From Fibrobacter succinogenes (GTDB taxonomy: Bacteria; Fibrobacterota; Fibrobacteria; Fibrobacterales; Fibrobacteraceae), in contig CACXMH010000013.1 in assembly GCA_902768715.1 (NCBI GenBank), forward strand, positions 410-64,409: 64,000 bases of DNA, written 5' to 3'. Every line of letters starts with the position of its first letter. The stretch's first letter is position 1. The notes under the pieces were generated by a model. That model was not told the DNA's origin. It did no database searches and saw only the letters and a program-made list of their open reading frames with translations. Of the stretch, positions 20,413 through 62,751 are shown in pieces. The position numbers and the translations under genes are program-made.

Positions 20413-20485
20413 GATGTCATCCTCGTGAGAGAATGTCATCCCCGCCCGTTCGGCTTGCTCAGGGCAGGCTCCGGCGGGGATCTCC
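20413..20485. repeat. GTCATCC-family repeats (two heads) with an ATCCCCGCC...GGCGGGGAT long hairpin and a GGGGATCTCC tail
   Basis: gatGTCATCCtcg... aatGTCATCCCCGCC cgttcggcttgctcagggcaggctcc GGCGGGGATCTCC. The loop shares gctcagggcaggct with 50966-51013. Confidence 0.75.
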
Positions 20486-20589: not shown

Positions 20590-22320
20590 TTAGTACTTGG
20601 CAGTGAGTACCGATGGGCACTCGACTTCCCTATAGGTGTGGTTGGGATTACCGGCCGCTTCCATGAAGTTGGCCAAGAACAGGCAACCTTGCTTGGCTTG
20701 AGAGTCGCTGCCGAAGGACGTGTTGCACTTGTTGACCAAGCACTCCTTGCGCCTGGTATAAATTTCCTCTTCGGATCCGTTATATCCGGCTTCGTTTTCG
20801 CAGACGCTTAAAAGTCCGCCATAACGCTCGCCCATATTGCCACTCCAACCCATCAGGGAACTACAGCCGTCAAATGCACCATATCCACCGCCCGGAATCA
20901 TAATGTCGAATTGCTGGTGGCTCACATCGTAGCCAATGTTGGAGGCCATGACGATAAGTTTTTTGCCCTTGAGTTTCTTGTGATTCAGCGTGGTTTCGTA
21001 TTTGCCCTCGCCAGTAAAGGTAAGCTCAAAGCACCTACCGCAGGCGGCGTTTGTCGGAACGGCCGCGAAAGCAAAGCCGATATTTGAACAACCGTCAATG
21101 GTAAACGGAATCTGGCTAATGCAAGTTGCCATGGGACCGCCATCACAGACACTGGCAGCACCCCAGTCTGAAGACTTCGTTGTGCCCTTGTTCGAGCATT
21201 GGCTTGCGAGGTTTTGGGTGTTTGCTGCCCAGGAACAGCTGGGCTTGCAGCAGTCCCAATAACGGCTAGCAAAACCACTTCCCGAGTCACCACCCTTGGC
21301 AACGATGTTCGGGCAGCTTCCTGTCTGCTGGCTTGTAGAACTGGGAGTCTGCTGCTGGGAGTTGGAACTGGGAGTCTGCTGGGAGTTGGAACTCGGAGTC
21401 GGGTTAGGATTGGGATTCGGGTTCGGGTTAGGATTGGGATTCGGGTTCGAGACTGTGCCCACATCTGCGCAGTTATTTCCCGTTGGATCGTACCAGCATT
21501 GTAAAACGCAGGATGCATCATAAGAGTACTGTTCCTCATGGGCTCCTCTCAGACCATGCGCATAATGATCGACACATTGACTCGAAACACTGTCGTAGCA
21601 TTTGTTATCGCCGCAGTTATCCCCCGATGAAGCAGAGTTTTGCGTCTGGTTGCTTGCAGAGCTGGTCGTATTGTTGTTCTGGTTGTTGCTTCCGTTGCTT
21701 GCAGAGCTGGTCGTATTGTTGTTCTGGTTATTATTGCCACCGTTGCTTGCAGAACTGGTTGTGTTGTTGTTCTGGTTGTTGTTGCCGCCGTTGCTTGCAG
21801 AACTGGTCACCGTCTGCTGGTTGGCGTTGCTTGTGGGGTTGGAGGCTTCTGCAGAGGATTCTGTAGTCTTGTTCGGATTTTCGGCGATGATGTCGCCATT
21901 GTTGTCCACAATGTCGCCATTGTCATCTACTTTACCTACATCGTTACCTTCGGTATCCGTAACTTTGCCGTCGCCGTCAACCACCAGCTTCTGCCCGTCA
22001 TCAGTCGTGACGACTTTTACATCAGACAGATTTTCATCATCGATGTTTTCTACGATGGGGTTGCCGTCGTCATCAGTGATTTTGCGGTCGGCATAATGCC
22101 CAACGGCATTCCATTGTTCATCGAAGACACTTCCATCTTCTGTGATGTAGTATTTCTGTCCGTCTTGATCAAGAACCTGGACATTTTCGGCCATATTCGG
22201 AATGAGATTGGCCGGGTTTACGGTGGTGTTGTCGGTGCAGTTCCAGGCGAGCATGAGCGCACCCGCAACCAACATTGATTTGAAGAACGGAAATTTCATG
22301 GTACCTCTCTTTATACCCAT
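20590..22320 (-). CDS. Secreted endo-beta-1,4-glucanase, glycoside hydrolase family 45, with long low-complexity linkers
   Basis: The C-terminal domain carries GH45 signatures (SRYWDCCKPSCSWA, CGRCFELTFTG, KKLIVMASNIG, FDIMIPGGGYGAFDGC). A signal peptide, a D/G/N-rich region, N/S-rich tandem repeats and a (PN)n linker lie upstream. Confidence 0.85.
   Translation of the reverse strand: MGIKRGTMKFPFFKSMLVAGALMLAWNCTDNTTVNPANLIPNMAENVQVLDQDGQKYYITEDGSVFDEQWNAVGHYADRKITDDDGNPIVENIDDENLSDVKVVTTDDGQKLVVDGDGKVTDTEGNDVGKVDDNGDIVDNNGDIIAENPNKTTESSAEASNPTSNANQQTVTSSASNGGNNNQNNNTTSSASNGGNNNQNNNTTSSASNGSNNQNNNTTSSASNQTQNSASSGDNCGDNKCYDSVSSQCVDHYAHGLRGAHEEQYSYDASCVLQCWYDPTGNNCADVGTVSNPNPNPNPNPNPNPNPTPSSNSQQTPSSNSQQQTPSSTSQQTGSCPNIVAKGGDSGSGFASRYWDCCKPSCSWAANTQNLASQCSNKGTTKSSDWGAASVCDGGPMATCISQIPFTIDGCSNIGFAFAAVPTNAACGRCFELTFTGEGKYETTLNHKKLKGKKLIVMASNIGYDVSHQQFDIMIPGGGYGAFDGCSSLMGWSGNMGERYGGLLSVCENEAGYNGSEEEIYTRRKECLVNKCNTSFGSDSQAKQGCLFLANFMEAAGNPNHTYREVECPSVLTAKY
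21401..21448. repeat. Coding microsatellite-like (GGGTTN)n tract encoding a (PN)n linker
   Basis: gggttaggattgggattcgggttcgggttaggattgggattcgggttc; it translates on the minus strand to PNPNPNPNPNPNPNP. Confidence 0.9.
21650..21805. repeat. Coding tandem repeat, about 3.3 copies of 45-48 nt (SSASNGGNNNQNNNTT units)
   Basis: Repeated ttgcttgcaga(g/a)ctggt(c/t)gt(a/g)ttgttgttctggtt... units inside the GH45 gene. Confidence 0.9.
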
Positions 22321-22546: not shown

Positions 22547-22652
22547 ACCCTAATACCTACATCTAGCGGATCCTCGCCTTGGTTCGACTTCGCTTACCAC
22601 AGGTCGCGAGGATGACAATCCTAGCCCCTAGATCCTAGATCCTAACCCCTGG
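22547..22652. repeat. Composite repeat: 3 heptads, GGATCCTCGC...GCGAGGATGAC hairpin, then 5 CTAG-type heptads
   Basis: accctaa tacctac atctag, then the hairpin at 22567-22617, then atcctag cccctag atcctag atcctaa cccctgg. The last heptads contain the stop codon of the 22642-23646 gene. Confidence 0.8.
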
Positions 22653-27533: not shown

Positions 27534-28547
27534 CTACTCTTCTACAACCAGGTCCATGGCCCGTTGGAGCATTCCGGCGGCGTCTTTTGTTTTGGGGGCT
27601 TCTTGGCTCAAGACCTGACGGAATTTTCGGGCGCCGGGGAGTCCAGTGAACAGCCCGTAGAGGTGGCGTGTGAGGATGGTAGCTGGAGTCCCTTTGGAAA
27701 ATTCCTTTTCCACATAGGGCAGATAGGCTTCGAGAACCGCTTTGCGGGACGCGGGCTTCCCTTCTTTTGTCATTCCCGGCTTGGCCGGGAATCTCCCATC
27801 ACAGAATATTCTCTCGTCGGCATCCCGCAGGAACCAAGGATTCTCGTAGGCTTCGCGACCCACCATCACGCCGTCCAGGTCTTTCAGCTGTTCTTCTACC
27901 TGGTCCATGGTTTTGATGCCGCCGTTGATGGAAATGTTCAGCTGGGGCATCTCGGCCTTTAAATTGTGGACAAATTCATATTTCAACGGCGGAACTTCCC
28001 GGTTCTCCTTGGGACTGAGCCCCTTGAGCCAGGCCTTTCGGGCGTGTATAATGAAAATTCGGCAGCCTGCGTCGGCGATAGTCCCGACAAAGTTCCGGAA
28101 AAATTCCCAGCTGTCGAATTCATCTACGCCGATGCGGCACTTGATGGAAACGGGAATGGAGACGGCGTCTTGCATGGCCTTGAAACAGTCCGCCACCAGG
28201 TTCTTGTCCTTCATGAGGCAGGCACCGAAGTTTCCGTTCTGTACCCGGTCCGAAGGGCATCCGCAGTTCAGGTTCACTTCGCCAAAGCCTGCGCATTCCA
28301 CCATCTTGCTTGCCGCCGCAAGTTCTGCAGGGTCGCTTCCGCCCAGTTGCAGCACCGCGGGCATTTCGCAGTCTTCGTGGCCCAGGAACAGTTCCGGGTC
28401 CTTGCAGTGCAAAAGTCCTGTAGATACCACCATCTCGCTGTAGAGCAAGATGTTCTTGGAAATCAACCGCAAAAAATACCGCTCGTGACGGTCGGTGCAG
28501 TCCAGCATGGGGGCGATAGAAAGCCGTCGGTTGAAATCCAGGTCCAT
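27534..28547 (-). CDS. dusA: tRNA-dihydrouridine synthase A
   Basis: N-terminal RLSIAPMLDCTDRHERYFLRL and a TIM-barrel Dus pattern (NLNCGCPS, IKCRIG, IIHARKA). Confidence 0.85.
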   Translation of the reverse strand: MDLDFNRRLSIAPMLDCTDRHERYFLRLISKNILLYSEMVVSTGLLHCKDPELFLGHEDCEMPAVLQLGGSDPAELAAASKMVECAGFGEVNLNCGCPSDRVQNGNFGACLMKDKNLVADCFKAMQDAVSIPVSIKCRIGVDEFDSWEFFRNFVGTIADAGCRIFIIHARKAWLKGLSPKENREVPPLKYEFVHNLKAEMPQLNISINGGIKTMDQVEEQLKDLDGVMVGREAYENPWFLRDADERIFCDGRFPAKPGMTKEGKPASRKAVLEAYLPYVEKEFSKGTPATILTRHLYGLFTGLPGARKFRQVLSQEAPKTKDAAGMLQRAMDLVVEE

Positions 28548-28562
28548 GGGGGGAAAGATAGT

Positions 28563-28711
28563 AATTAGGGGTTAGGTATTAGGTAATAGGTTGTAGGTAT
28601 TAGGGGTGCAGGTTTCAAGAAGCGTCATCCTGAGGAGTGTAGCGACGAAGGATCCAGTCTGTAGGAATAGGTAAACTGTGGTTTTGGGTCGCTTCGCTTT
28701 GAGGAGTGAGG
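28563..28711 (-). repeat. ~150-nt composite intergenic element (heptad array, GTCATCC...GGATCC hairpin, conserved flank); inverted copy of 41989-42137
   Basis: The reverse complement aligns by eye almost base-for-base with 41989-42137 (ctcaaagc.aa.cgacc.aaaccacagtttacctattcctac.gactggatccttcgtcgct.cactcctcaggatgac.cttcttg.aacctgcaccccta...). Confidence 0.85.
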
Positions 28712-28734
28712 TTCGAGGCGCGAGGTTTGGGAAA

Positions 28735-28763
28735 TGTCATCCTCGCGAAGGCGAGGATCCGCC
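28735..28763. repeat. GTCATCCTCGC gaag GCGAGGATCC hairpin repeat (short-loop variant)
   Basis: Perfect ATCCTCGC/GCGAGGAT stem. The same unit occurs at 53013-53040. Confidence 0.85.
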
Positions 28764-28785
28764 AAACACTAGCCATTTTTCTATA

Positions 28786-29706
28786 ATGCTTACCATGAGC
28801 CTGATTAAAAACATTGTCGTAGCGGGCGGGACCCATGGAAACGAGCGGACAGGTGTCCGCCTGGTGGAAAAGTGGATGGAATACCCCGAATGCTACAGCT
28901 CCTGTTGCCCAAGCGCCAAGGTGGAACTGGTGCTTTCGAACCCGGAGGCGGTCCGGCAGAACAGGCGGTACCGCGACCACGACCTGAACAGGGCTTTTTC
29001 ACAGGTGTGCCTGGACATGAGCGCAGAACCCCAGGAATACGAGTTCCGCCGTGCACGGGAACTGAACCGCATCTACGGCCCCAAGGGAACCGGCACAAAG
29101 ACAGACCTGTTGCTGGACGTGCACAATACGGGAGCCAACATGGGGCTGTGCCTGATCCTTTCGGCGCGGGACCCTTTCACTATGAAAGCCTCCGCCGTGC
29201 TGACCCAGGAATTCAAGGACGCCTGGATTTATTACCAACCCGAAGAGCGGAGCATGTCGCCTTACTTTGGCACGGTGGCCAAGGCGGACGTGTGCATCGA
29301 GATTGGCCCCCAGCAGCACGGCACCCTGGATGCACGCCTGTTCGAGGAATCGGAAAGTCTTGTGAAGCGTTACCTGGAACTTGCGGAGGAATGGAACCGT
29401 GGGGAACTCCAGAAGCGTGCCCCTATTCAGGTGGAAGTGTTTACGCAACTTCGGGACTTGGGTTACCCCAAGGCCTGGACGGGAGCGCCCATCGAGGCCA
29501 TGATTCATCCCGATTTGTTGGGCCGTGACTTTGGCGAACTGAAAAAGGGCGACAAGTTGTTCCGCACCTTCGACGGCAAGGACATTCTGTACCAGGGCGA
29601 GGCTGACGGACGCGAGAGCGTGTGGCCCATCTTTATCAACGAACCCGCCTACTACGAGAAGGACATCGCCATGAGCCTTACGGTAAGGACCGTGGAGGAG
29701 TGGTGA
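28786..29706 (+). CDS. Aspartoacylase / succinylglutamate desuccinylase family zinc hydrolase
   Basis: N-terminal IVVAGGTHGNERTG motif and DLNRAF. The start is placed at the ATG at 28786 (or 28795), because the upstream part of the track ORF lies in repeats. Confidence 0.75.
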   Translation: MLTMSLIKNIVVAGGTHGNERTGVRLVEKWMEYPECYSSCCPSAKVELVLSNPEAVRQNRRYRDHDLNRAFSQVCLDMSAEPQEYEFRRARELNRIYGPKGTGTKTDLLLDVHNTGANMGLCLILSARDPFTMKASAVLTQEFKDAWIYYQPEERSMSPYFGTVAKADVCIEIGPQQHGTLDARLFEESESLVKRYLELAEEWNRGELQKRAPIQVEVFTQLRDLGYPKAWTGAPIEAMIHPDLLGRDFGELKKGDKLFRTFDGKDILYQGEADGRESVWPIFINEPAYYEKDIAMSLTVRTVEEW

Positions 29707-33974: not shown

Positions 33975-34004
33975 TGTCATCCCCGACTTGGTCGGGGATC
34001 TCCC
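33975..34004. repeat. TGTCATCCCCGAC ttg GTCGGGGATCTCC hairpin repeat
   Basis: Perfect ATCCCCGAC/GTCGGGGAT stem with the GGGGATCTCC tail also seen at 18630-18639 and 20476-20485. Confidence 0.8.
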
Positions 34005-39258: not shown

Positions 39259-39323
39259 AAAGCCTTCTTGTTGTGGCGGAATATAGAAAAATCCGCCCGA
39301 AATATGGACGAGGTGAAAAGGAG

Positions 39324-39343
39324 ATGCCCGCCTTCGCGGGCAT
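39324..39343. repeat. ATGCCCGC cttc GCGGGCAT hairpin repeat
   Basis: Perfect 8-bp stem. A related copy is at 18490-18511 and a half-copy at 6468-6480. Confidence 0.75.
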
Positions 39344-39368
39344 GACAAATCGAAGAAAGGACGGTCGT

Positions 39369-39461
39369 CCGTGAGCAACAAAGCCCCTGGTATTAACCAG
39401 GGGCGGTTGCGAGAGTGAGCGCAGTCCGGAGAATTTGCTCCTGACTTTGGCGCGAACGGTC
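39369..39461 (-). repeat. Conserved ~95-nt two-hairpin element immediately 3' of ilvN (copy A)
   Basis: The minus strand reads TAAgc GACCGTTCGCGCCAAAGTCAGGAGCAAATTCTCCGGACTGCGCTCACTCTCGCAACC GCCCCTGG ttaata CCAGGGGC TTTGTTGCTCAC. It matches 55852-56041. Confidence 0.85.
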
Positions 39462-39463
39462 GC

Positions 39464-39964
39464 TTAAGTTTTGTCTTCGCCGCGGAGCATGATGACCTTG
39501 CCCGTGCGGATGTATTCCACGATTTCGAATTTCTGGAGCAGACTCTTCAGGTTGTCCACCTTGTCGCTGCTTCCGGTAATCTGGATAATCATGGACTTTT
39601 CGGTCATATCTACGGTATGGGCCTTGAAGTGGTCGCAGAGCTGCAGCACTTCGGTTCTCTGGTCCGGAGTGCAGCGCACCTTGATGAGGGCCAGTTCCTT
39701 TTCCACTGCGTTGGTATCGGTGTGGTCCTTGGCCTGCACCACGTCCACCAGCTTTTCCAGCTGCTTGATAATCTGCATCAGGATTTCGGGATTGCCGTGG
39801 GCGATGATATTCATGCGGCTGAAATTCGGGTCCAAGGTGGGGGAGACCACCAGGGAATCGATGTTGTAGCCACGACGGGAGAACACTAGCGCGATACGCA
39901 CCAGCACGCCGGGGCGGTTCGCAACCAACAAACTAATAGAATGTGCCTTATCAATCATCTTCAA
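39464..39964 (-). CDS. ilvN: Acetolactate synthase small (regulatory) subunit
   Basis: 166 aa with an ACT-domain start ([31 protein letters not shown]), immediately downstream of ilvB. Confidence 0.9.
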
Positions 39965-41692: not shown

Positions 41693-41988
41693 AAAATACC
41701 TGAGTTAGAGTTTGAAATTTTATAAAAAGTTGACGAAAAATTAGCAGATTTTATTGGGAACGGCAAGATGTAGTTCCTGAATTTGTTGAAAATTTTTGAA
41801 TTTTTTAATAAAAAATGAATTTTTTTGAGCTTTCAATTGCTAAAAATTGTGAAAAAATGACAAAGTTGCGGAAAATTTTGGTTTTGTTGATTTGAAAAAA
41901 GCTGATTTGTTGTAAAAGTTTGATAAATGAACTATATTTTGATAGAAAAATTTTAAACTTTTGACTGAAAGATGTGAATTTTGTACTG
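41693..41988 (-). promoter_or_regulatory. Strongly AT-rich ~300-bp region upstream of ilvB with repeated TTTTTGA/TTGAAAA words
   Basis: Visibly AT-rich compared with its surroundings. It contains many copies of ttgaaa / tttttga / aaaattt. No ORF or leader peptide was recognised. Confidence 0.4.
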
Positions 41989-42137
41989 CCTCACACTTCA
42001 AAGCAAAACGACCTCAAACCACAGTTTACCTATTCCTACGGACTGGATCCTTCGTCGCTGCACTCCTCAGGATGACACTTCTTGTAACCTGCACCCCTAC
42101 AACCTACAACCTACAACCTAACCACTAGCCCCTAACC
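41989..42137 (+). repeat. ~150-nt composite intergenic element, inverted copy of 28563-28711, ending at the rnhB ATG
   Basis: The modules are a conserved flank, the hairpin GGATCCTTCGTCGCTGCACTCCTCAGGATGAC, then the heptads cctgcac ccctaca acctaca acctaca acctaac cactagc ccctaac. Confidence 0.85.
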
Positions 42138-42857
42138 ATGAAATACAAGAATCCCGACTTTATGTCAGCCGTCACCACTCCTATTGAGGGTGAAATTGCC
42201 TTCCGCAACTACGCCGAATCTACTTTTGGCCCTAATTATATTATAGTAGGTATCGACGAAGTTGGCCGCGGCCCGTTGGCGGGCCCTGTGGTGGCTTGTG
42301 CCGCCGTGCTCAAATCTGCCGATATTTTGTCCGTATTGAACGATTCGAAAAAGTTCACTCGACCCAAGCGAGAAGCTATTTACGACAAAGTAAAAGATGC
42401 CTGTGAATGCTATGCCATCGCCAGCGCCAGCGTTGAGGAAATTGACCGCCTGAACATCTTGGAAGCCGATTTCTTGGCCATGCGGCGGGCATTGCAGGCG
42501 TTGGGTATGACGGAAATCACGGAAAAACAGCCCGAACTACCCGTGGAGGTCCGGGGACATTTTAAGCCGGGTGCGACCGTTCTAGTAGCGGTGGATGGAA
42601 ATTTGAAAATTCGCGGTTTGGACCAGGAGTGCCAGTTCCCCGTGATAAAAGGGGACGGTTTGGTGGCCTCTATTTCTGCGGCATCAATCCTTGCTAAGGT
42701 CTTCCGTGATCGCTATATGGACCGCCTGGCTCAGGAATATCCGGGTTACGGCTTTGAAAAACATGCTGGCTACGGCACTAAGGCACACCTGGCCGCCATT
42801 CGCAAGCAGGGCTTTTCGCCGGTGCACCGCAAGACGTTCCATCCGAAAGGACTGTAG
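42138..42857 (+). CDS. rnhB: Ribonuclease HII
   Basis: IVGIDEVGRGPLAGPVV catalytic motif, DSKK, and a C-terminal HR.TF motif. Confidence 0.9.
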   Translation: MKYKNPDFMSAVTTPIEGEIAFRNYAESTFGPNYIIVGIDEVGRGPLAGPVVACAAVLKSADILSVLNDSKKFTRPKREAIYDKVKDACECYAIASASVEEIDRLNILEADFLAMRRALQALGMTEITEKQPELPVEVRGHFKPGATVLVAVDGNLKIRGLDQECQFPVIKGDGLVASISAASILAKVFRDRYMDRLAQEYPGYGFEKHAGYGTKAHLAAIRKQGFSPVHRKTFHPKGL

Positions 42858-42860
42858 AAA

Positions 42861-42936
42861 ATGAGTAATGAGTTGCGAGTTGTGAGTCGTGAGTAGTGGG
42901 AAATTACACCCCTCACACCCCACACTTCACATCTAG
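42861..42936. repeat. Dyad-symmetric heptad array (11 units)
   Basis: atgagta atgagtt gcgagtt gtgagtc gtgagta gtgggaa attacac ccctcac accccac acttcac atctag. The left-arm GTGAG units face right-arm CTCAC units. Confidence 0.85.
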
Positions 42937-43062: not shown

Positions 43063-44115
43063 ATGAAGAAACTTGCAATGGTTGTTTTCCTTGCCTCTAT
43101 GGTGGGCGGGGCTTATGCTCAGGCTCCTGCTGCACCCGCTCCCGCACCGGCTCCTGCGGCCGCACCGGCTCCTGCCGCTGCTCCTGCACCAGCCCCCGCT
43201 GCACAGCCTGCCCCTGCCGCACAACCGGTAGCCGCAGCCCCTGCTGCTGAAGCGGCTCCTGCTGCACCTGTAGCCGAAGCCCCTGCCGCAGATCCCTGCG
43301 CTGTCGATTCCCTGGGTCAGCCGATTAACGCTGACGCTTGCGCCGCCGAACAGGCTCGCCAGCAGGCGGTAGCCGATTCTATCGCTGCCGCCGAAGAAGC
43401 TGCCCGTCAGCAGGCAATTGCGGACTCCATCGCCGCCGAACAGGCTCGCCAGCAGGCTATAGCTGATTCTATCGCCGCTGCCGAAGAAGCCCGCAAGCAG
43501 GCCGAGGCCGATTCTATTGCCGCCGCTGAAGCTGCCCAGAAGGCCGAAGCCGACAAGGCTGCCGCAGCAGGTCGCCTTGCTCTTGGTATTACCGGGTCGG
43601 CGGGCTTCGGTATGTTTAATGTCAAGTACGACGACAACCACTTTAAGGACTTCCCCTTTACTTTTGGGGTGAGCGGACTTTTCACTAAGGGTATGTTCGG
43701 CGCTCGCTTGGCCGGAACCATGCAGTACAATCGCCTCTATGTGGGTGAATCCCGCAACCGTACCGTAAACGAAGGTTACTGGCGCGCTGGTGCCGGCCTC
43801 TACGGACGTTTTATGCCCAACCAGAAAGAGGACGGACTTATTGTTGAACTGGGCGTTTCCGGTGCATGGGTCACTTCCAATGACATCGTTCTGTACCCCA
43901 ATGCTTCCAAGCACGCCTCTGTGGTTTACAAGCCCCAAGCCCAATATGATGTTGAACTGGGATTCGGTTACGGGATCAATTTTGCCGGTATGGCCGGTGA
44001 ACTGGGTGCTTATGCCGCCTATGACATCCTTGAGACTATGGAATTCACCAGCGACACAGATGGCCGTGCTTGGCATGTCGGTGCTCGTGCCACATTCTGG
44101 CTTCTTAATCTTTAA
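43063..44115 (+). CDS. Secreted/outer-membrane protein with (AP)n and AEQARQQAIADSIAA repeats and a beta-barrel-like C-terminal half
   Basis: Signal peptide MKKLAMVVFLASMVGGAYAQ, an Ala/Pro-rich tract, about 4 copies of the A(E/Q)ARQQA(I/V)ADSIAA repeat, and alternating aromatic beta-strand patterns. Confidence 0.6.
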   Translation: MKKLAMVVFLASMVGGAYAQAPAAPAPAPAPAAAPAPAAAPAPAPAAQPAPAAQPVAAAPAAEAAPAAPVAEAPAADPCAVDSLGQPINADACAAEQARQQAVADSIAAAEEAARQQAIADSIAAEQARQQAIADSIAAAEEARKQAEADSIAAAEAAQKAEADKAAAAGRLALGITGSAGFGMFNVKYDDNHFKDFPFTFGVSGLFTKGMFGARLAGTMQYNRLYVGESRNRTVNEGYWRAGAGLYGRFMPNQKEDGLIVELGVSGAWVTSNDIVLYPNASKHASVVYKPQAQYDVELGFGYGINFAGMAGELGAYAAYDILETMEFTSDTDGRAWHVGARATFWLLNL

Positions 44116-49904: not shown

Positions 49905-49988
49905 TTATAGGTTTTAGGTTATAGGTATTAGGTTTTAGGTAGTAGGTATTAGGTCCGAGGCCCTAGCCCCTAGATCCTAGCCCCTAAA
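49905..49988. repeat. Dyad-symmetric heptad array (12 units) between pal and ybgF
   Basis: ttatagg ttttagg ttatagg tattagg ttttagg tagtagg tattagg tccgagg ccctagc ccctaga tcctagc ccctaaa. Confidence 0.9.
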
Positions 49989-50024
49989 TTCCAACAATCT
50001 ATTCATTCTTCAACAATTACGAAT

Positions 50025-52787: not shown

Positions 52788-52962
52788 ATGTGAGGTCGGG
52801 GCTTCGCCCCTTTGAGGTATGGGGTATGAGGTGTGGTCCTTCAGGTCAAGCAATGTGGAATGTGTAGTGAATCATGAGTTGTGAGTTGTGAGGTGTGGGT
52901 CGTGAGTAGTGTGTAATGTGTAGTGTGGAGTGTGGAGTGTGGGATGAATAATGAACGATGAT
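52788..52962 (+). repeat. Heptad array, about 25 consecutive 7-nt units of type NNNTGNG
   Basis: In register from 52788: ...caatgtg gaatgtg tagtgaa tcatgag ttgtgag ttgtgag gtgtggg tcgtgag tagtgtg taatgtg tagtgtg gagtgtg gagtgtg ggatgaa taatgaa cgatgat. Confidence 0.9.
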
Positions 52963-52970
52963 TCCATCTT

Positions 52971-53099
52971 CGTCATGTTCGCGAAGGCGAACATCTGCTA
53001 GCTGTTATCAAGCGGATCCTCGCCTTCGCGAGGATGACGTTCCTCAAAGCGAAGCGACCTCAAACCCCTAGCCCCTAGATCCTAGCCCCTAGCCCCTAA
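52971..53099. repeat. Two hairpin repeats, the conserved flank module, and 5 CCCCTAG-type heptads
   Basis: GTTCGC gaag GCGAAC; GGATCCTCGC cttc GCGAGGATGAC; cctcaaagcgaagcgacctcaaacc (the same flank as in 28563-28711 and 41989-42137); cccctag cccctag atcctag cccctag cccctaa. Confidence 0.85.
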
Positions 53100-53106
53100 T
53101 CTCTAT

Positions 53107-54204
53107 CTATTTCTCGATAATTGCCGAGGCCACGATGCCGTCGCCGGCGTAGAGCACCATGATTTGCCCGGGGGTGGCGGCGAATTGCGGCGTGTCGAAC
53201 CGGATAGAAATTCGGTTGTCTGTAAGTTCGGTAATGCTTGCTTCGGCGAAGGTGTGACCCAGCCGGATTTTTGCCTGGAGTTTCTGCTGCAGCAGGGGAG
53301 AATCCTTGGAAACCATCAGGTTCAGCTGGCTCCCGCTGACTTCGCTGCATTGCAACAGACTGCGAGGGCCGAGCACCACTTGATTCTTCTTGACGTCGAT
53401 GGCAATCACGAAAAGGGGCTCCGGCTGTCCGCCGATGTTCAGCCCTTTCCTTTGCCCGATGGTGTAATGGATGAACCCTTTGTGCTGCCCTAGGACTTTG
53501 CCGTTTACATCTACGAAGTCCCCGGGAACGTTGTCGCTTTCGTCAAAGAGCACGGAGTAGTCGCCGCATTCCAGAAAATCCTGGCTTTCTTTTTTGGAGG
53601 CAAAATCTTCCCAGCCGATTTTACGGGCCAGTTCCTTGACCTCTTCCTTGTGCATCTCGCCCAGCGGGAACAGCACCGACGAAAGCTGGTCTTCGGTTAG
53701 CCTGGAAAGGAAATAGGACTGGTCCTTGAAAGAGTCCCGGGCTTTCCACAGGAATGGTTCTTCGGGGCTTCTGAAATCCAGGCGGGCGTAGTGCCCCGTG
53801 GCAAAGTAGTCAAAATCTACGCCCATCTTGCGGACGGCGTGGAGCATGGCTCCGAACTTGATGGACTGGTTACAGCGTACACATGGGTTAGGCGTGCGGC
53901 CCGCCCGGTATTCGGCGCGGAAATAGTCCAGCACGTTTTTCTTGTATTCCTCTACCACGGAAACCACATGGAAGGGAATAGACAGGCGCTTGGCCACATT
54001 CTCGGCGGCTTCGATGCTTTCCCCTTCGTTGGGGCCGAAACATCCGGAGCGGCCCTCCACGATGGGCATGTCGATGGAACCGTCCCAGAGGGCCATGGTG
54101 ATGCCTATGACGTTGTAGCCCTTCTGCTGCAAGGTCCAGGCGGTAAGGGCGGAATCTACGCCTCCCGAAAGACCGACTGCTACTGTTTTGTTGCCTAGTT
54201 CCAT
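53107..54204 (-). CDS. mnmA: tRNA-specific 2-thiouridylase
   Basis: PP-loop VAVGLSGGVDSA, the CN..IKF motif, ATGHYA, and overall length. Confidence 0.92.
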   Translation of the reverse strand: MELGNKTVAVGLSGGVDSALTAWTLQQKGYNVIGITMALWDGSIDMPIVEGRSGCFGPNEGESIEAAENVAKRLSIPFHVVSVVEEYKKNVLDYFRAEYRAGRTPNPCVRCNQSIKFGAMLHAVRKMGVDFDYFATGHYARLDFRSPEEPFLWKARDSFKDQSYFLSRLTEDQLSSVLFPLGEMHKEEVKELARKIGWEDFASKKESQDFLECGDYSVLFDESDNVPGDFVDVNGKVLGQHKGFIHYTIGQRKGLNIGGQPEPLFVIAIDVKKNQVVLGPRSLLQCSEVSGSQLNLMVSKDSPLLQQKLQAKIRLGHTFAEASITELTDNRISIRFDTPQFAATPGQIMVLYAGDGIVASAIIEK

Positions 54205-55266: not shown

Positions 55267-55851
55267 ATGGGTACTGTAAGCACCAACGAATTCCGCAAGA
55301 AACTTAAAATCATGGTTGATGATCAGCCGTACGAAATCATCGAAAACCAGTTCGTGAAGCCGGGTAAGGGCCAGGCCTTCAACCGTGTTCGTATCAAGAA
55401 CCTGGTGACCGGCCGCACTCTGGAACGCACCTGGAAGAGTGGCGATACGGTGGAAGAAGCCGATGTGACCTTCACCGAAATGACCTACCTCTACAATGAC
55501 GGTTCTACTTGGTATTTCTTGAACAACGAATCCCAGGAAACCGAAGAAATTTCCAAGGAAGCTCTGAACGGCTGCGAAGTCTGGCTCCTGGACGGTGCTA
55601 CCGTAGAAGTGACCTGGTGGAAGGACCCGAAGTCCGGCGCTACGCTTCCTATCGAAGTGATTCCGCCTACCTTCGTTGACCTGATGATCGTAGATGCACC
55701 TCCGGCAGTGCAGGGCAACACCAGCGGCAACGTGATGCGTGAAGCCATTCTCGAAACCGGTGCCAAGGTGATGATCCCGCTGTTCATCGAGAACAACACC
55801 AAGATCCGCGTGGACACCCGCGACGGTTCTTACCTCGAAAGAGCGAAATAA
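55267..55851 (+). CDS. efp: Translation elongation factor P
   Basis: KPGKGQAF loop with the modifiable Lys. Colinear with E. coli EF-P apart from one short insertion. Confidence 0.92.
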   Translation: MGTVSTNEFRKKLKIMVDDQPYEIIENQFVKPGKGQAFNRVRIKNLVTGRTLERTWKSGDTVEEADVTFTEMTYLYNDGSTWYFLNNESQETEEISKEALNGCEVWLLDGATVEVTWWKDPKSGATLPIEVIPPTFVDLMIVDAPPAVQGNTSGNVMREAILETGAKVMIPLFIENNTKIRVDTRDGSYLERAK

Positions 55852-55946
55852 GACCGTTCGTGCTAAAAGCCGGAGCAAATTCTCCGGCCGGCACTCACTC
55901 TCACAACCACGCTCGGTTAATACCGAGCGTTTGTTGTTCACAATAA
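55852..55946 (+). repeat. Conserved 95-nt two-hairpin element, copy B (directly after the efp TAA)
   Basis: GACCGTTCGTGCTAAAAG CCGGAG caaatt CTCCGG CCGGCACTCACTCTCACAACC ACGCTCGG ttaata CCGAGCGT TTGTTGTTCACAATAA. Confidence 0.9.
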
Positions 55947-56041
55947 GACCGTTCGTGCTAAAAGCCGGAGCAAATTCTCCGGACTGCACTCACTCTCGCA
56001 ACCGCCCCAGTTTAATAACTGGGGCTTTGTTGCTCACGTAG
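55947..56041 (+). repeat. Conserved 95-nt two-hairpin element, copy C (tandem to copy B)
   Basis: The same element, with the second stem changed to GCCCCAG tttaataa CTGGGGC. Confidence 0.9.
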
Positions 56042-57861: not shown

Positions 57862-57883
57862 ACAGGCTCAATATAGAACTTAG

Positions 57884-57967
57884 GAGTAATGTGTAGTGTG
57901 TAATGTGTAATGAGAGGTGTACAATGTATAATCAGTCATTTCACATTATACATTCCACATCTCACAC
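57884..57967. repeat. Dyad-symmetric heptad array (12 units) containing a perfect 10-bp inverted repeat
   Basis: gagtaat gtgtagt gtgtaat gtgtaat gagaggt gtacaat gtataat cagtcat ttcacat tatacat tccacat ctcacac. AATGTATAAT (57923-57932) pairs with ATTATACATT (57945-57954). Confidence 0.9.
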
Positions 57968-57980
57968 CGCCGTGTAGCGG

Positions 57981-61461: not shown

Positions 61462-62751
61462 CTAGAGCCTTTCGCCTATAAGGGCGAAGGGCTCTGTTTT
61501 TGTAATGCGCACTTGTAGAGCTTTGCCTGCCGGGATGTTCCCCTGCAGGGCCACGGGGCGGTAGGCGCAGTTACGTGCGATGGTGGTGCCTGCCCGGTGG
61601 CCTTGTTTTTCGGTCACGACCGTGCAGGTCTTGCCAACCCAGCGCTGGTTGTTTTCTTGGGCGATTTGCTGGAAGGCGTCGAACAGCTTTGCGGAGCGTT
61701 CGTGCTTTACGCTGTCGGGAACGGCAGGCGTGTCGTCGGCGTTTGCTTTTTCTATGCGGGCGGCAACGGTCCCTTTGCGGGCCACGAACCGCGTAATGTT
61801 ACAGACGGTGGGGCGGGTCTCCTTCAGCAGGTCAATGGTCTCTTGAAAGTCGGCATCTGTTTCTCCAGGGAAACCCACAATCAGGTCTGTACTGAGGGTG
61901 AACAGCGGGAACTTTTCTTGCAACTCCAGCGCAAAGTTACGGAAATTCTCCACGGAGTGCTTGCGGTTCATGAGCTGCAGAACGCGTTCGCTCCCGCTCT
62001 GGACAGGAACGTGCAAGAACTGGTAGAGCCGTTCGTCTTGGAAACATTCCAGCAGGGCGTCTTTATAGCCGAGGATGTGCCTCGGGTTTCCCATGCCCAG
62101 CCGGATCTTGTAGTTTCCGGGAACTTGGACGAGAATTTTTTGCGTGAGGTTTGCAAGGTTCGTGCCGGTGTCAAAACCGTAGCAGGCGCAGTCCTGCCCG
62201 CTGAGCTGAATCTCCAGGCATCCGTCTTCTACTAGGCGACGGACCTGTTCTACGATGGCGTCTTCGGGTTCGCTCCGGAGCTTGCCTTTGACCAGCTTTG
62301 TGGAGCAGAAGGCACAGGCGTCCAGGCAGCCTTCCTCGATGTTAACGATGCCTACGAAGGGGGACTGCCGGAGGATTCGCATGTCATTCTGGAGCCCCTC
62401 CGGGGCGATAGAATCCAAGGACTCTATCGCTTTCAAACTCGTGAACGATACCTTGTCCGAAATCTTGCGGGCTTCTTCCTGGAAATCCTTGGGAGCGCAT
62501 CCTGTTATAAAGATAGGTGCCTGCGGAAAAGCCGATACCGCCTGCTGCAAAAGTTTCAGGGCGGATCCGTTTCCTTTGACGGTGCACACGTTCAGGTAAA
62601 AGGCAAAAGGCTGCTCTGTCGGGAATTCAAAAGAGATGGAACAGTCCGGATGTTGTGCGGACAGCGCCCGGGCGATTTTTTCCCCGTCGCCGAAGTTGGC
62701 GGCACAGCCCTGGCTGAGAACTGCAATGACAGGCGAGGTGGCGGAACTCAT
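61462..62751 (-). CDS. Radical-SAM methylthiotransferase (MiaB/MtaB family) with a TRAM domain
   Basis: The N-terminal UPF0004 Cys pattern (QGCAAN, NVCTV, ITGC), the radical-SAM site EEGCLDACAFCS, and a C-terminal TRAM-like domain. ATG 62751 overlaps the upstream stop (ATGA). Confidence 0.8.
   Translation of the reverse strand: MSSATSPVIAVLSQGCAANFGDGEKIARALSAQHPDCSISFEFPTEQPFAFYLNVCTVKGNGSALKLLQQAVSAFPQAPIFITGCAPKDFQEEARKISDKVSFTSLKAIESLDSIAPEGLQNDMRILRQSPFVGIVNIEEGCLDACAFCSTKLVKGKLRSEPEDAIVEQVRRLVEDGCLEIQLSGQDCACYGFDTGTNLANLTQKILVQVPGNYKIRLGMGNPRHILGYKDALLECFQDERLYQFLHVPVQSGSERVLQLMNRKHSVENFRNFALELQEKFPLFTLSTDLIVGFPGETDADFQETIDLLKETRPTVCNITRFVARKGTVAARIEKANADDTPAVPDSVKHERSAKLFDAFQQIAQENNQRWVGKTCTVVTEKQGHRAGTTIARNCAYRPVALQGNIPAGKALQVRITKTEPFALIGERL

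Follow-up and report, generated by a model that had tools for sequence, protein, structure and literature searches.

The repetitive extragenic palindromic (REP) sequences and bacterial interspersed mosaic elements (BIMEs) of Escherichia coli are extragenic imperfect palindromes of ~25-50 nt with conserved feet and compensatory stem changes, set in mosaics that vary between strains. Miniature inverted-repeat transposable elements (MITEs), such as the Correia elements of Neisseria, and the pneumococcal BOX elements are likewise short, non-coding and intergenic, are sometimes modular with a variable number of boxB units, and can carry promoters. Here we analyse a 64-kb stretch of Fibrobacter DNA (the window) in which a ~150-nt intergenic composite occurs twice, as copy A upstream of dusA and as copy B upstream of rnhB. 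A preliminary description had taken this composite for a dispersed, non-autonomous mobile or recombining element of MITE or BIME type. We find that both copies are paralogous patches of a modular, non-coding intergenic mosaic found in uncultured rumen Fibrobacter, and that their likeness probably arose by gene-conversion-like copying from rnhB to dusA within this mosaic, and not by transposition.

Tandem heptamers have been described in other bacteria. The (GGGANTN)n repeats of Xanthomonas and the GGGGA(C/T)T heptamers of Nostoc combine a conserved core with variable positions, are ~90% intergenic, place the G-rich array near an open reading frame (ORF) on its 5' side at an average of 28 nt, frequently form convergent plus/minus pairs, and vary strongly in length and sequence between close relatives (Rehm et al. 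2015, PMC4692102). In Beggiatoaceae, cyanobacteria and some Bacteroidetes, TAACTGA direct repeats lie a few nt upstream of start codons in 'forward' orientation, in regions where Shine-Dalgarno (SD) sequences are rare, other heptamers co-occur, and reverse-oriented sets are occasionally seen just after stop codons (MacGregor 2015, PMC4679880). Upstream of hmw1A and hmw2A in Haemophilus influenzae, perfect 7-bp repeats undergo high slippage with a demonstrated graded effect on expression (PMC8262952, PMC12721329). By analogy, the Fibrobacter system would appear to join REP/BIME-type mosaics to heterogeneous heptamer repeats of this sort. In the literature that we searched, we found no previous report of heptamer repeats in Fibrobacter, nor of the hairpin sequence that accompanies them.

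The anatomy of copy A (28563-28711, minus strand) and copy B (41989-42137, plus strand) is laid out in Table 1. The reverse complement of the first runs gapless against the second through the flank (26/32 positions identical), the unique segment (22/23), the hairpin module (32/33) and the CTTCTTGnAACCTGCACCC module (18/20), amounting to 98/108 over these four pre-heptad modules and 72/76 over the three middle ones; beyond them the heptads differ. These counts bear out the near base-for-base match of two distant loci in the preliminary description, just as the sequences of both arrays confirm that their units differ and that copy B ends exactly at the rnhB ATG. Other parts of that description hold in modified form. 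The copies do lie on opposite strands, but they are not merely inverted, for relative to the abutted gene both read identically: flank, unique segment, hairpin ending in GGATGAC, CTTCTTG module, CCTAnnn heptads, ATG. The hairpin module is present in each, but its stem has only 5 bp (ATCCT/AGGAT) around a loop of 17 nt, and no inverted repeat was detected in copy B; this 'hairpin 2' is a degenerate member of a far better-paired hairpin family. Nor is the element devoid of ORFs, as a 46-codon, TTG-started ORF overlaps each copy. The two ORFs have different end points and the flank substitutions are mostly non-synonymous on direct reading; a coding role is rejected because neither end point nor sequence is conserved between the copies, and the composite stands as non-coding. 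The idea that the entire composite is a decayed heptad array was likewise rejected, since by hand count its CCT positions share no 7-nt phase, the flank excepted. The window contains just two matches to the 31-nt hairpin block and just two to the 24-nt unique block, where 100 shuffles give an expectation of 0 for either. The flank occurs three times (0.08 expected), and its third match (53042-53059) falls in a locus where, as first described, the flank is fused directly to heptads.

Beyond the window the composite is equally restricted. We scanned one genome per species, from 185,579 species, for exact matches to GTAGGAATAGGTAAACTGTGG, a 21-mer of the unique segment, and found it in 5 places, all in metagenome-assembled genomes (MAGs) of uncultured Fibrobacter sp. 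Four of these are the orthologous site upstream of rnhB in four MAGs, and the fifth lies upstream of dusA in the same MAG as one of the rnhB matches. In fuzzy searches of 1.2 Mb of fetched DNA (related contigs and loci, numbered L), neither the unique segment nor the CTTCTTG module was found away from the dusA and rnhB loci, nor was hairpin 2, apart from one relative of it with 4 mismatches in L041; the linker (the flank) was found at four distinct loci. Proteins identical to the window's Dus and RNase HII are encoded on many rumen metagenome contigs, with homologues named Fibrobacter DusA and RNase HII. The 150-nt composite is thus a two-locus paralogue and not a dispersed family, and probably does not itself transpose; what is dispersed are its separate building blocks, namely GTCAT hairpins, linker and heptad arrays. 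Like MITEs and BOX elements, it is short, non-coding, intergenic and modular, with a variable-number part. It differs from them in having two copies instead of tens to hundreds, and in lacking terminal inverted repeats or a clear target duplication: no terminal inverted repeats join the ends of either copy (8-11-nt inverted pairs are internal to the copy A region, and absent from copy B), and alignment of empty and filled sites shows at most a 3-nt ACC repeat around a ~75-nt block bounded by AAACC|...GCACC|, and no clean duplication around the larger inserted block. Blastn matches to plasmids or phages were not found. The proposal of a dispersed MITE therefore lacks support, while the modular, BIME-like nature of the element is upheld by hairpin, linker and heptads combined into locus-specific mosaics. 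The preliminary description had reasoned that a genome with only these copies and no polymorphism among strains would point to local duplication; for the composite only these copies were found, but polymorphism was found as well, both as presence or absence and as swaps of modules, and the heptad array, with its whole-unit length differences, is indeed the hypervariable end.

At dusA, empty, intermediate and full states are observed. In L025 (Dus protein 86% identical; 84.6% nucleotide identity to the window), the divergent start codons are separated by 34 repeat-free nt, of which the last 14 are homologous to the window's ctatctttcccccc (28548-28561). Upstream of dusA in L030 (Dus protein 87%) stand GCGGATCCTCGCCTTCGCGAGGATGAC, a CCTCnnn-like run ending in TCAAAGCGAAGCGACCTCAAACC, and five CCTAnnn heptads, the same layout as at the third locus of the window (53014-53101). 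To this L030 state the window and L021 add ~75 nt, comprising ACAGTTTACCTATTCCTACAGAC, hairpin 2 and GCTTCTTGAAACCTGCACC, exactly between flank and heptads. The whole inserted repeat block at dusA exceeds copy A, reaching ~28776 and including a second, perfect hairpin (28736-28760). Because L030 has the flank without the ~75-nt block, and because the dusA linker core is closer to the generic linker of the third locus, L030 and L049 (21/23) than to the rnhB linker (19/23), the flank at dusA predates the block. In more distant relatives (L026, L028 and L029; Dus 78-79%), a Fib_succ_major gene separates the aspartoacylase-like gene from dusA (8780-10010 in L026 and L029, compared with 28548-28800 in the window) and there are no repeats; MatE, not priA, is found downstream of dusA in L026 and L029. 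Judging from these gene orders, the dusA neighbourhood appears to have been rearranged in the window's lineage.

The rnhB mosaic, for its part, differs in almost every lineage compared. There is no intergenic region at all upstream of rnhB in L038 (RNase HII 71%), four CnnACnC heptads in L036 and L037 (81%), and hairpin 1 with a half-hairpin duplicate and degenerate heptads in L035 (89%). L032 (92%) has the long-loop hairpin 3, a spacer, the linker-like CTCACTCCTCAGAGCGAAGCGAC and (CCCTAGA TCCTAGC)n. The window-type composite is shared by the window, L020, L022, L023 and L024, whose loci are 82-100% nucleotide-identical to the window. In L003 and L005, whose RNase HII is identical to the window's, hairpin 3 as in L032 is joined at GGATGAC|AC to the window-type CTTCTTG module, an arrangement that is the expected product of exchange or deletion between conserved hairpin feet. 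In every lineage that has intergenic DNA at this place, the heptad array ends at the rnhB ATG.

These histories lead us to favour copying between the loci as the probable source of the ~150-nt likeness. The rnhB copy is probably the older, as it is present in lineages 82-100% identical to the window. Between the copies, the three middle modules agree better than the flank does (72/76 against 26/32), and the first heptads behind the block at dusA (CCTAATA CCTACAA CCTATTA) are those behind the rnhB block in L024, L023 and L020. We infer that the ~75-nt block of unique segment, degenerate hairpin 2 and CTTCTTGnAACCTGCACC was copied from the older rnhB mosaic into the simpler dusA mosaic, and that the first few heptads behind it were carried along. 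Such copying would be homology-driven and non-reciprocal, hence gene-conversion-like, with the shared linker as left homology arm and the heptads as right arm, so that the copied tract would run from the 3' end of the linker to a point inside the heptads. Afterwards the heptad end would have diverged fast, as unit positions 5-7 took substitutions and whole 7-nt units were gained and lost through unequal exchange or slipped-strand mispairing.

Several observations weigh against this account. The order of events at dusA is drawn from three lineages only, and L030 may instead be a derived deletion of the 75-nt block; lineage assignments are also approximate, as the MAG of L021 and L024 is 95% and 88% identical to the window at the respective loci. 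The block is bounded by ...AAACC|ACAG and ...GCACC|CCTA, and the 3-nt ACC duplication could be a short target duplication. The scan of species genomes needs an exact 21-mer and MAGs often lose repeats, so that diverged or unassembled extra copies are possible. Finally, the account leaves the first origin of the block at rnhB unexplained.

Some of these points would suit an alternative in which a non-autonomous transposable element, made up of the ~75-nt block or of the composite as a whole, inserts specifically at the linker|heptad junction and is moved in trans by a transposase that recognises hairpins, be it a REP-associated tyrosine transposase (RAYT) or an IS200/IS605-like enzyme. The polymorphism at dusA is sharp-ended, the hairpin in the block belongs to an abundant family whose feet are conserved, the identical junction (..AAACC | CCTA..) is occupied at both loci, and ACC stands at both block ends. 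We nonetheless hold transposition to be unlikely. The block occupies just two loci in the species genomes and the 1.2 Mb of related DNA, and terminal inverted repeats are absent. A heuristic HUH/Y motif screen of all fetched DNA yielded no Y1-transposase-like ORF, which is a weak negative. Moreover, the copied tract runs into the heptads, and donor and recipient are homologous on both sides, so recombination suffices without a transposase.

Since close relatives do without it, the mosaic is dispensable, and so it is probably largely neutral, tolerated DNA and at most a crude modifier of expression. It would lengthen the SD-less 5' leader of dusA by ~215 nt, and its heptad end would vary the 5' leader of rnhB in 7-nt steps. 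SD-less starts are general here (an SD-like motif precedes 14/45 crude gene starts in the window), and loss of the SD sequence as a special trait of heptad-preceded genes was rejected on that ground. A consensus scan found no promoter or terminator inside the element, neither at dusA nor at rnhB, where the only upstream candidate (41910-41938) lies outside it.

A regulatory role could nevertheless be envisaged if the conserved core were a cis-regulatory cassette of dusA and rnhB, a promoter or 5' leader, in which the candidate hexamers would be TTGnAA in the CTTCTTG module and, after a 17-nt spacer, TAcAAc in the first heptads, with heptad number acting as a rheostat. Both copies do abut the ATG in the same orientation, TTG(T/A)AA-N17-TA(C/T)AAC is found in both and in most orthologues, and the insertion at dusA displaced the former promoter-proximal region by the ~215 nt given above. 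The hmw genes of H. influenzae, tuned by the number of 7-nt repeats between promoter and ATG (PMC8262952, PMC12721329), offer a precedent for graded control, with a tract before the start codon whose unit number is strain-variable; the Fibrobacter units differ in being imperfect, and an effect on expression is known for hmw. We nevertheless find the cassette doubtful. Its -10-like hexamer has no final T and fails a sigma-70 scan in both regions, and it varies in orthologues, being TACTAC in L004 and absent in L022. The same genes occur without the cassette in L025, L030, L032, L035 and L036, and L003 and L005 swapped part of it despite an RNase HII identical to the window's. Sense-strand RNA of both copies folds no better than chance (z = +0.28 and -1.40).

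A structured small RNA or antisense RNA read from the G-rich strand of the composite, with the linker and the hairpin-2 loop region paired as a long stem, is very improbable, for although this strand can form an extended hairpin (AGCGAC with GUCGCU/GUCGUU, GGAGUG with CGCUUU/UGCUUU) and the differences between copies A and B in those stems are G-U-compatible on the G-rich strand only, its folding z is just -1.96 and -0.99, close relatives lack the element, neither promoter nor terminator was found, and Rfam gave nothing relevant around either copy at E<=10. At the gathering threshold, Rfam reports two tRNAs only in the whole window. With no Rfam family and z between +0.28 and -1.96, a structured leader or small RNA was rejected as a candidate. 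The paired heptad arrays, too, fold mostly no better than shuffles, one exception being 57880-57972 (z = -2.87).

Table 1. Positions of the two copies, the abutted genes, the third locus and other repeat features of the window
Feature	Position	Strand	Remarks
dusA	27534-28547	-	Dus-family tRNA-dihydrouridine synthase (Pfam); divergent neighbour is an AstE/AspA-like gene
Native dusA leader, 14 nt, ctatctttcccccc	28548-28561	-	after copy A heptads; then dusA ATG (28545-28547)
Copy A heptad array	28563-28604	-	six units: CCTAATA CCTACAA CCTATTA CCTAATA CCTAACC CCTAATT
Copy A CTTCTTG module GCTTCTTGAAACCTGCACC	28605-28623	-	
Copy A hairpin 2 TGGATCCTTCGTCGCTACACTCCTCAGGATGAC	28624-28656	-	keeps GTCAT...GGATCC feet of the hairpin family; 5-bp stem only
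Copy A unique segment ACAGTTTACCTATTCCTACAGAC	28657-28679	-	
Copy A flank (linker) CCTCACTCCTCAAAGCGAAGCGACCCAAAACC	28680-28711	-	tail of degenerate CCTCnnn heptad run; predates 75-nt block at dusA
Remainder of inserted repeat block at dusA	28712-28776	-	CCTCnnn-like spacer 28712-28735; perfect hairpin 1 GTCATCCTCGCGAAGGCGAGGATCC 28736-28760; short tail
Copy B flank (linker) CCTCACACTTCAAAGCAAAACGACCTCAAACC	41989-42020	+	diverged version
Copy B unique segment	42021-42043	+	
Copy B hairpin 2	42044-42076	+	
Copy B CTTCTTG module ACTTCTTGTAACCTGCACC	42077-42095	+	also kept in L003/L005, whose hairpin differs
Copy B heptad array	42096-42137	+	six units, the last abutting the rnhB ATG (42138)
rnhB	42138-42857	+	RNase HII (Pfam); divergent neighbour is acetolactate synthase large subunit
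Third locus, standard unit	53014-53101	+	hairpin 1 GGATCCTCGCCTTCGCGAGGATGAC 53014-53038; linker TTCCTCAAAGCGAAGCGACCTCAAACC 53040-53066; CCTAGnn heptads 53067-53101
Third locus, mirror half	52867-52996	+	G-rich heptads (GTGAGTT/GTGTGGA types) 52867-52946; reversed hairpin GTCATGTTCGCGAAGGCGAACATCT 52972-52996
Further heptad arrays abutting stop or start codons	22618-22644, 42863-42925, 49905-49986, 52867-53101, 57886-57966		often G-rich, then C-rich
GTCAT-footed hairpins inside ORFs	20435-20483, 27769-27794, 33976-34001, 39322-39346, 62383-62416		mostly near 3' ends; 27769-27794 at dusA 3' end

The mosaic to which both copies belong can be described as three kinds of part: REP-like hairpins with conserved feet, GTC-AT[stem]-loop-[stem]AT-CC; a linker, CCTCAAAGCGAAGCGACCTCAAACC; and degenerate 7-nt arrays (CCTAnnn), which are invariably on the hairpin's ...GGATGAC side and extend up to the neighbouring start or stop codon. 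The series of hairpin 1, linker and heptads recurs at the third locus, at dusA in L030 and the window, and in the Fibrobacter-like contigs L049 and L074, where hairpin 1 is again followed by linker and CCTAnnn heptads; the linker also stands at rnhB in L032 and the window. The heptads of the third locus stop 5 nt short of the stop codon (53107-53109) of a minus-strand gene, and in its mirror half the reversed hairpin faces hairpin 1 head to head.

Hairpins of the form GTC-AT[stem]...[stem]AT-C(C/T) with a stem of at least 7 bp number 12 in the window, against 0.16 expected (maximum 2). Their loops are GAAG, TTG or inserts of 26-30 nt, and their stems differ compensatorily, the pairs seen being ATCCTCGC/GCGAGGAT, ATGTTCGC/GCGAACAT, ATGCCCGC/GCGGGCAT and ATCCCCGAC/GTCGGGGAT. 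Because several members lie inside the 3' ends of ORFs, the family is not strictly extragenic. Dus homologues range in length from 327 to 358 amino acids, which would fit C-termini reshaped by hairpin insertions. The hairpin 1 21-mer CCTCGCCTTCGCGAGGATGAC is found on at least 120 metagenome contigs (L040-L159) with a GC content of 0.36-0.72, from rumen, termite gut, soil, activated sludge and sea water among the matches listed; given this range of 36-72% GC, hairpin 1 is not Fibrobacter-specific, and the distribution of CCTCGCCTTCGCGAGGATGAC is cross-phylum for a REP-like hairpin. The likeness to E. coli REP sequences and BIMEs extends to palindromic units, conserved feet, head-to-head pairs (52972-53038), recurring linkers and locus-specific mosaics, and we claim no homology. 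The sequences are unlike, the Fibrobacter foot being GTCAT and the REP foot GTAG; tandem 7-nt arrays form a regular outer module only in the Fibrobacter mosaic, and one Fibrobacter hairpin variant is common to organisms across the whole GC range above. In L043, L053, L071, L118 and L147 (also L035 and L041/L047), unrelated organisms, tandem 'half-hairpin' units of 20-26 nt ending in CGCGAGGATGAC lie directly 3' of the GGATGAC foot, which suggests that this foot is a hot spot for tandem duplication.

The heptad arrays behave as variable-number tandem repeats that evolve by whole units. Six alleles of rnhB have 42, 49, 77, 84, 84 or 91 nt between ...CTGCACC and the ATG, all multiples of 7, and relatives have 6, 7, 11, 12, 12 or 13 units. 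At dusA, the CCTCnnn runs of the window and L021 are one 7-nt unit apart in length, and behind the rnhB stop codon relatives carry a GAGTnnn array of 4-10 units, which L035 lacks. Unit type also changes, as the OmpA-TPR spacer (49905-50024) has TAGG-type units in the window and AATTCGG units in the 88%-identical L032. Tandem Repeats Finder placed the starts of arrays with period 7, 14 or 21 at 22618, 28564, 42096, 42863, 49905, 49961, 52867, 53065, 57886 and 57937. No heptad arrays occur in some 48 kb from more distant species of Fibrobacter (L026, L029, L038), and so we regard array expansion as lineage-specific.

The arrays are also polar. On either strand, in the 5' to 3' direction, intergenic regions open with G-rich units (nnnTAGG, GAGTnnn, GTGTnnn) and close with C-rich ones (CCTAnnn, CACAnnn), so that on the mRNA strand G-rich arrays follow stop codons and C-rich arrays precede start codons; where hairpins occur, the arrays are on their ...ATGAC side and point outward to the genes. 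This rule holds for 8/8 scored arrays of the window (11/11 by eye) and for 36/39 arrays overall (binomial p = 3.6e-8, a value inflated by orthologous loci). Of the three failures, one is an ORF-calling artefact and one, L155 2307-2377, is a true exception. At this locus a C/A-rich array (AACTAAA) stands on the left and a G/T-rich one (AGTTTTT) on the right, and the contig has other heptads that are not of Fibrobacter type. The polarity geometry, the convergent G-then-C pairs and the rapid turnover are shared with the repeats of Xanthomonas and Nostoc and the short tandemly repeated repetitive (STRR) sequences of cyanobacteria. The Fibrobacter arrays differ in being physically coupled to hairpins and linker and in their units (nnnTAGG/CCTAnnn, GAGTnnn, GTGTnnn, AATTCGG), most of which have no tracts of three or more G, and G-quadruplexes are therefore unlikely for many arrays. 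As with TAACTGA repeats, the heptads sit at start codons where SD sites are rare, but the TAACTGA unit is a different and uniform one and no hairpin or linker has been described with it, whereas the Fibrobacter units are degenerate and lineage-specific.

A speculative and improbable extension of these observations is that a dedicated polar process seeds 7-nt arrays at the ...ATGAC foot of the cross-phylum hairpin in Fibrobacter and, by analogy, in Xanthomonas and cyanobacteria, with arrays growing outward to the coding boundary so that genes become capped by tunable tracts. A hairpin-recognising enzyme acting by nicking and slippage synthesis would be one possible route. If this were true, tracts after stop codons would be G/U-rich with stop codons in three frames, and those before SD-less starts C/A-rich and unstructured; such tracts would set leader length, translation re-initiation or termination, and the half-hairpin arrays that unrelated organisms (L043, L071, L147) have at this foot would be a further product of the process.

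The likeness of the two copies is in itself of modest interest, and the surrounding repeat system of moderate interest. Where recombination copies a bacterial intergenic repeat mosaic from one locus to another, as seems to have happened in this case, the result can mimic a mobile element. A rumen cellulolytic genus holds an abundant, undescribed repeat system of GTCAT-footed hairpins, linker and 7-nt variable-number arrays, which rebuilds the DNA beside start and stop codons between strains with identical proteins. Its tracts may affect 5'-leader length and expression, could be used as strain markers, and probably cause contigs of Fibrobacter MAGs to break. Two features, the strict array polarity and the single hairpin variant spanning 36-72% GC, tie the system to the unexplained heptamers of Xanthomonas and cyanobacteria, and make the Fibrobacter arrays a new system for asking how such arrays arise.

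Other features of the window touch the mosaic less directly. Beyond the outer end (~28776) of the block inserted at dusA, the divergent aspartoacylase-like gene (ATG at 28796) has a perfect TATAAT. This hexamer ends 8 nt before the ATG (28780-28798) and is conserved in L025, which suggests that the mRNA of this gene is leaderless or near-leaderless. Longer tandem repeats inside ORFs at 21338-21822 and 43341-43530 (periods 24/48/93 and 45/90) seem to be repetitive protein-coding sequence. A candidate small-RNA element of ~95 nt is present in three copies with a mean identity of 87%, two in tandem at 55848-55945 and 55943-56040 on the plus strand and one at 39368-39472 on the minus strand. It consists of the stem-loop CCGGAGCAAATTCTCCGG, the C/A-rich single-stranded ACTGCACTCACTCTCGCAACC, and a further stem-loop, which resembles a terminator, shows compensatory changes and leads into TTTGTTG. 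In Rfam the element has a sub-threshold match to the cyanobacterial small RNA Yfr1 (27 bits, where the gathering score is 38; E = 0.0012).

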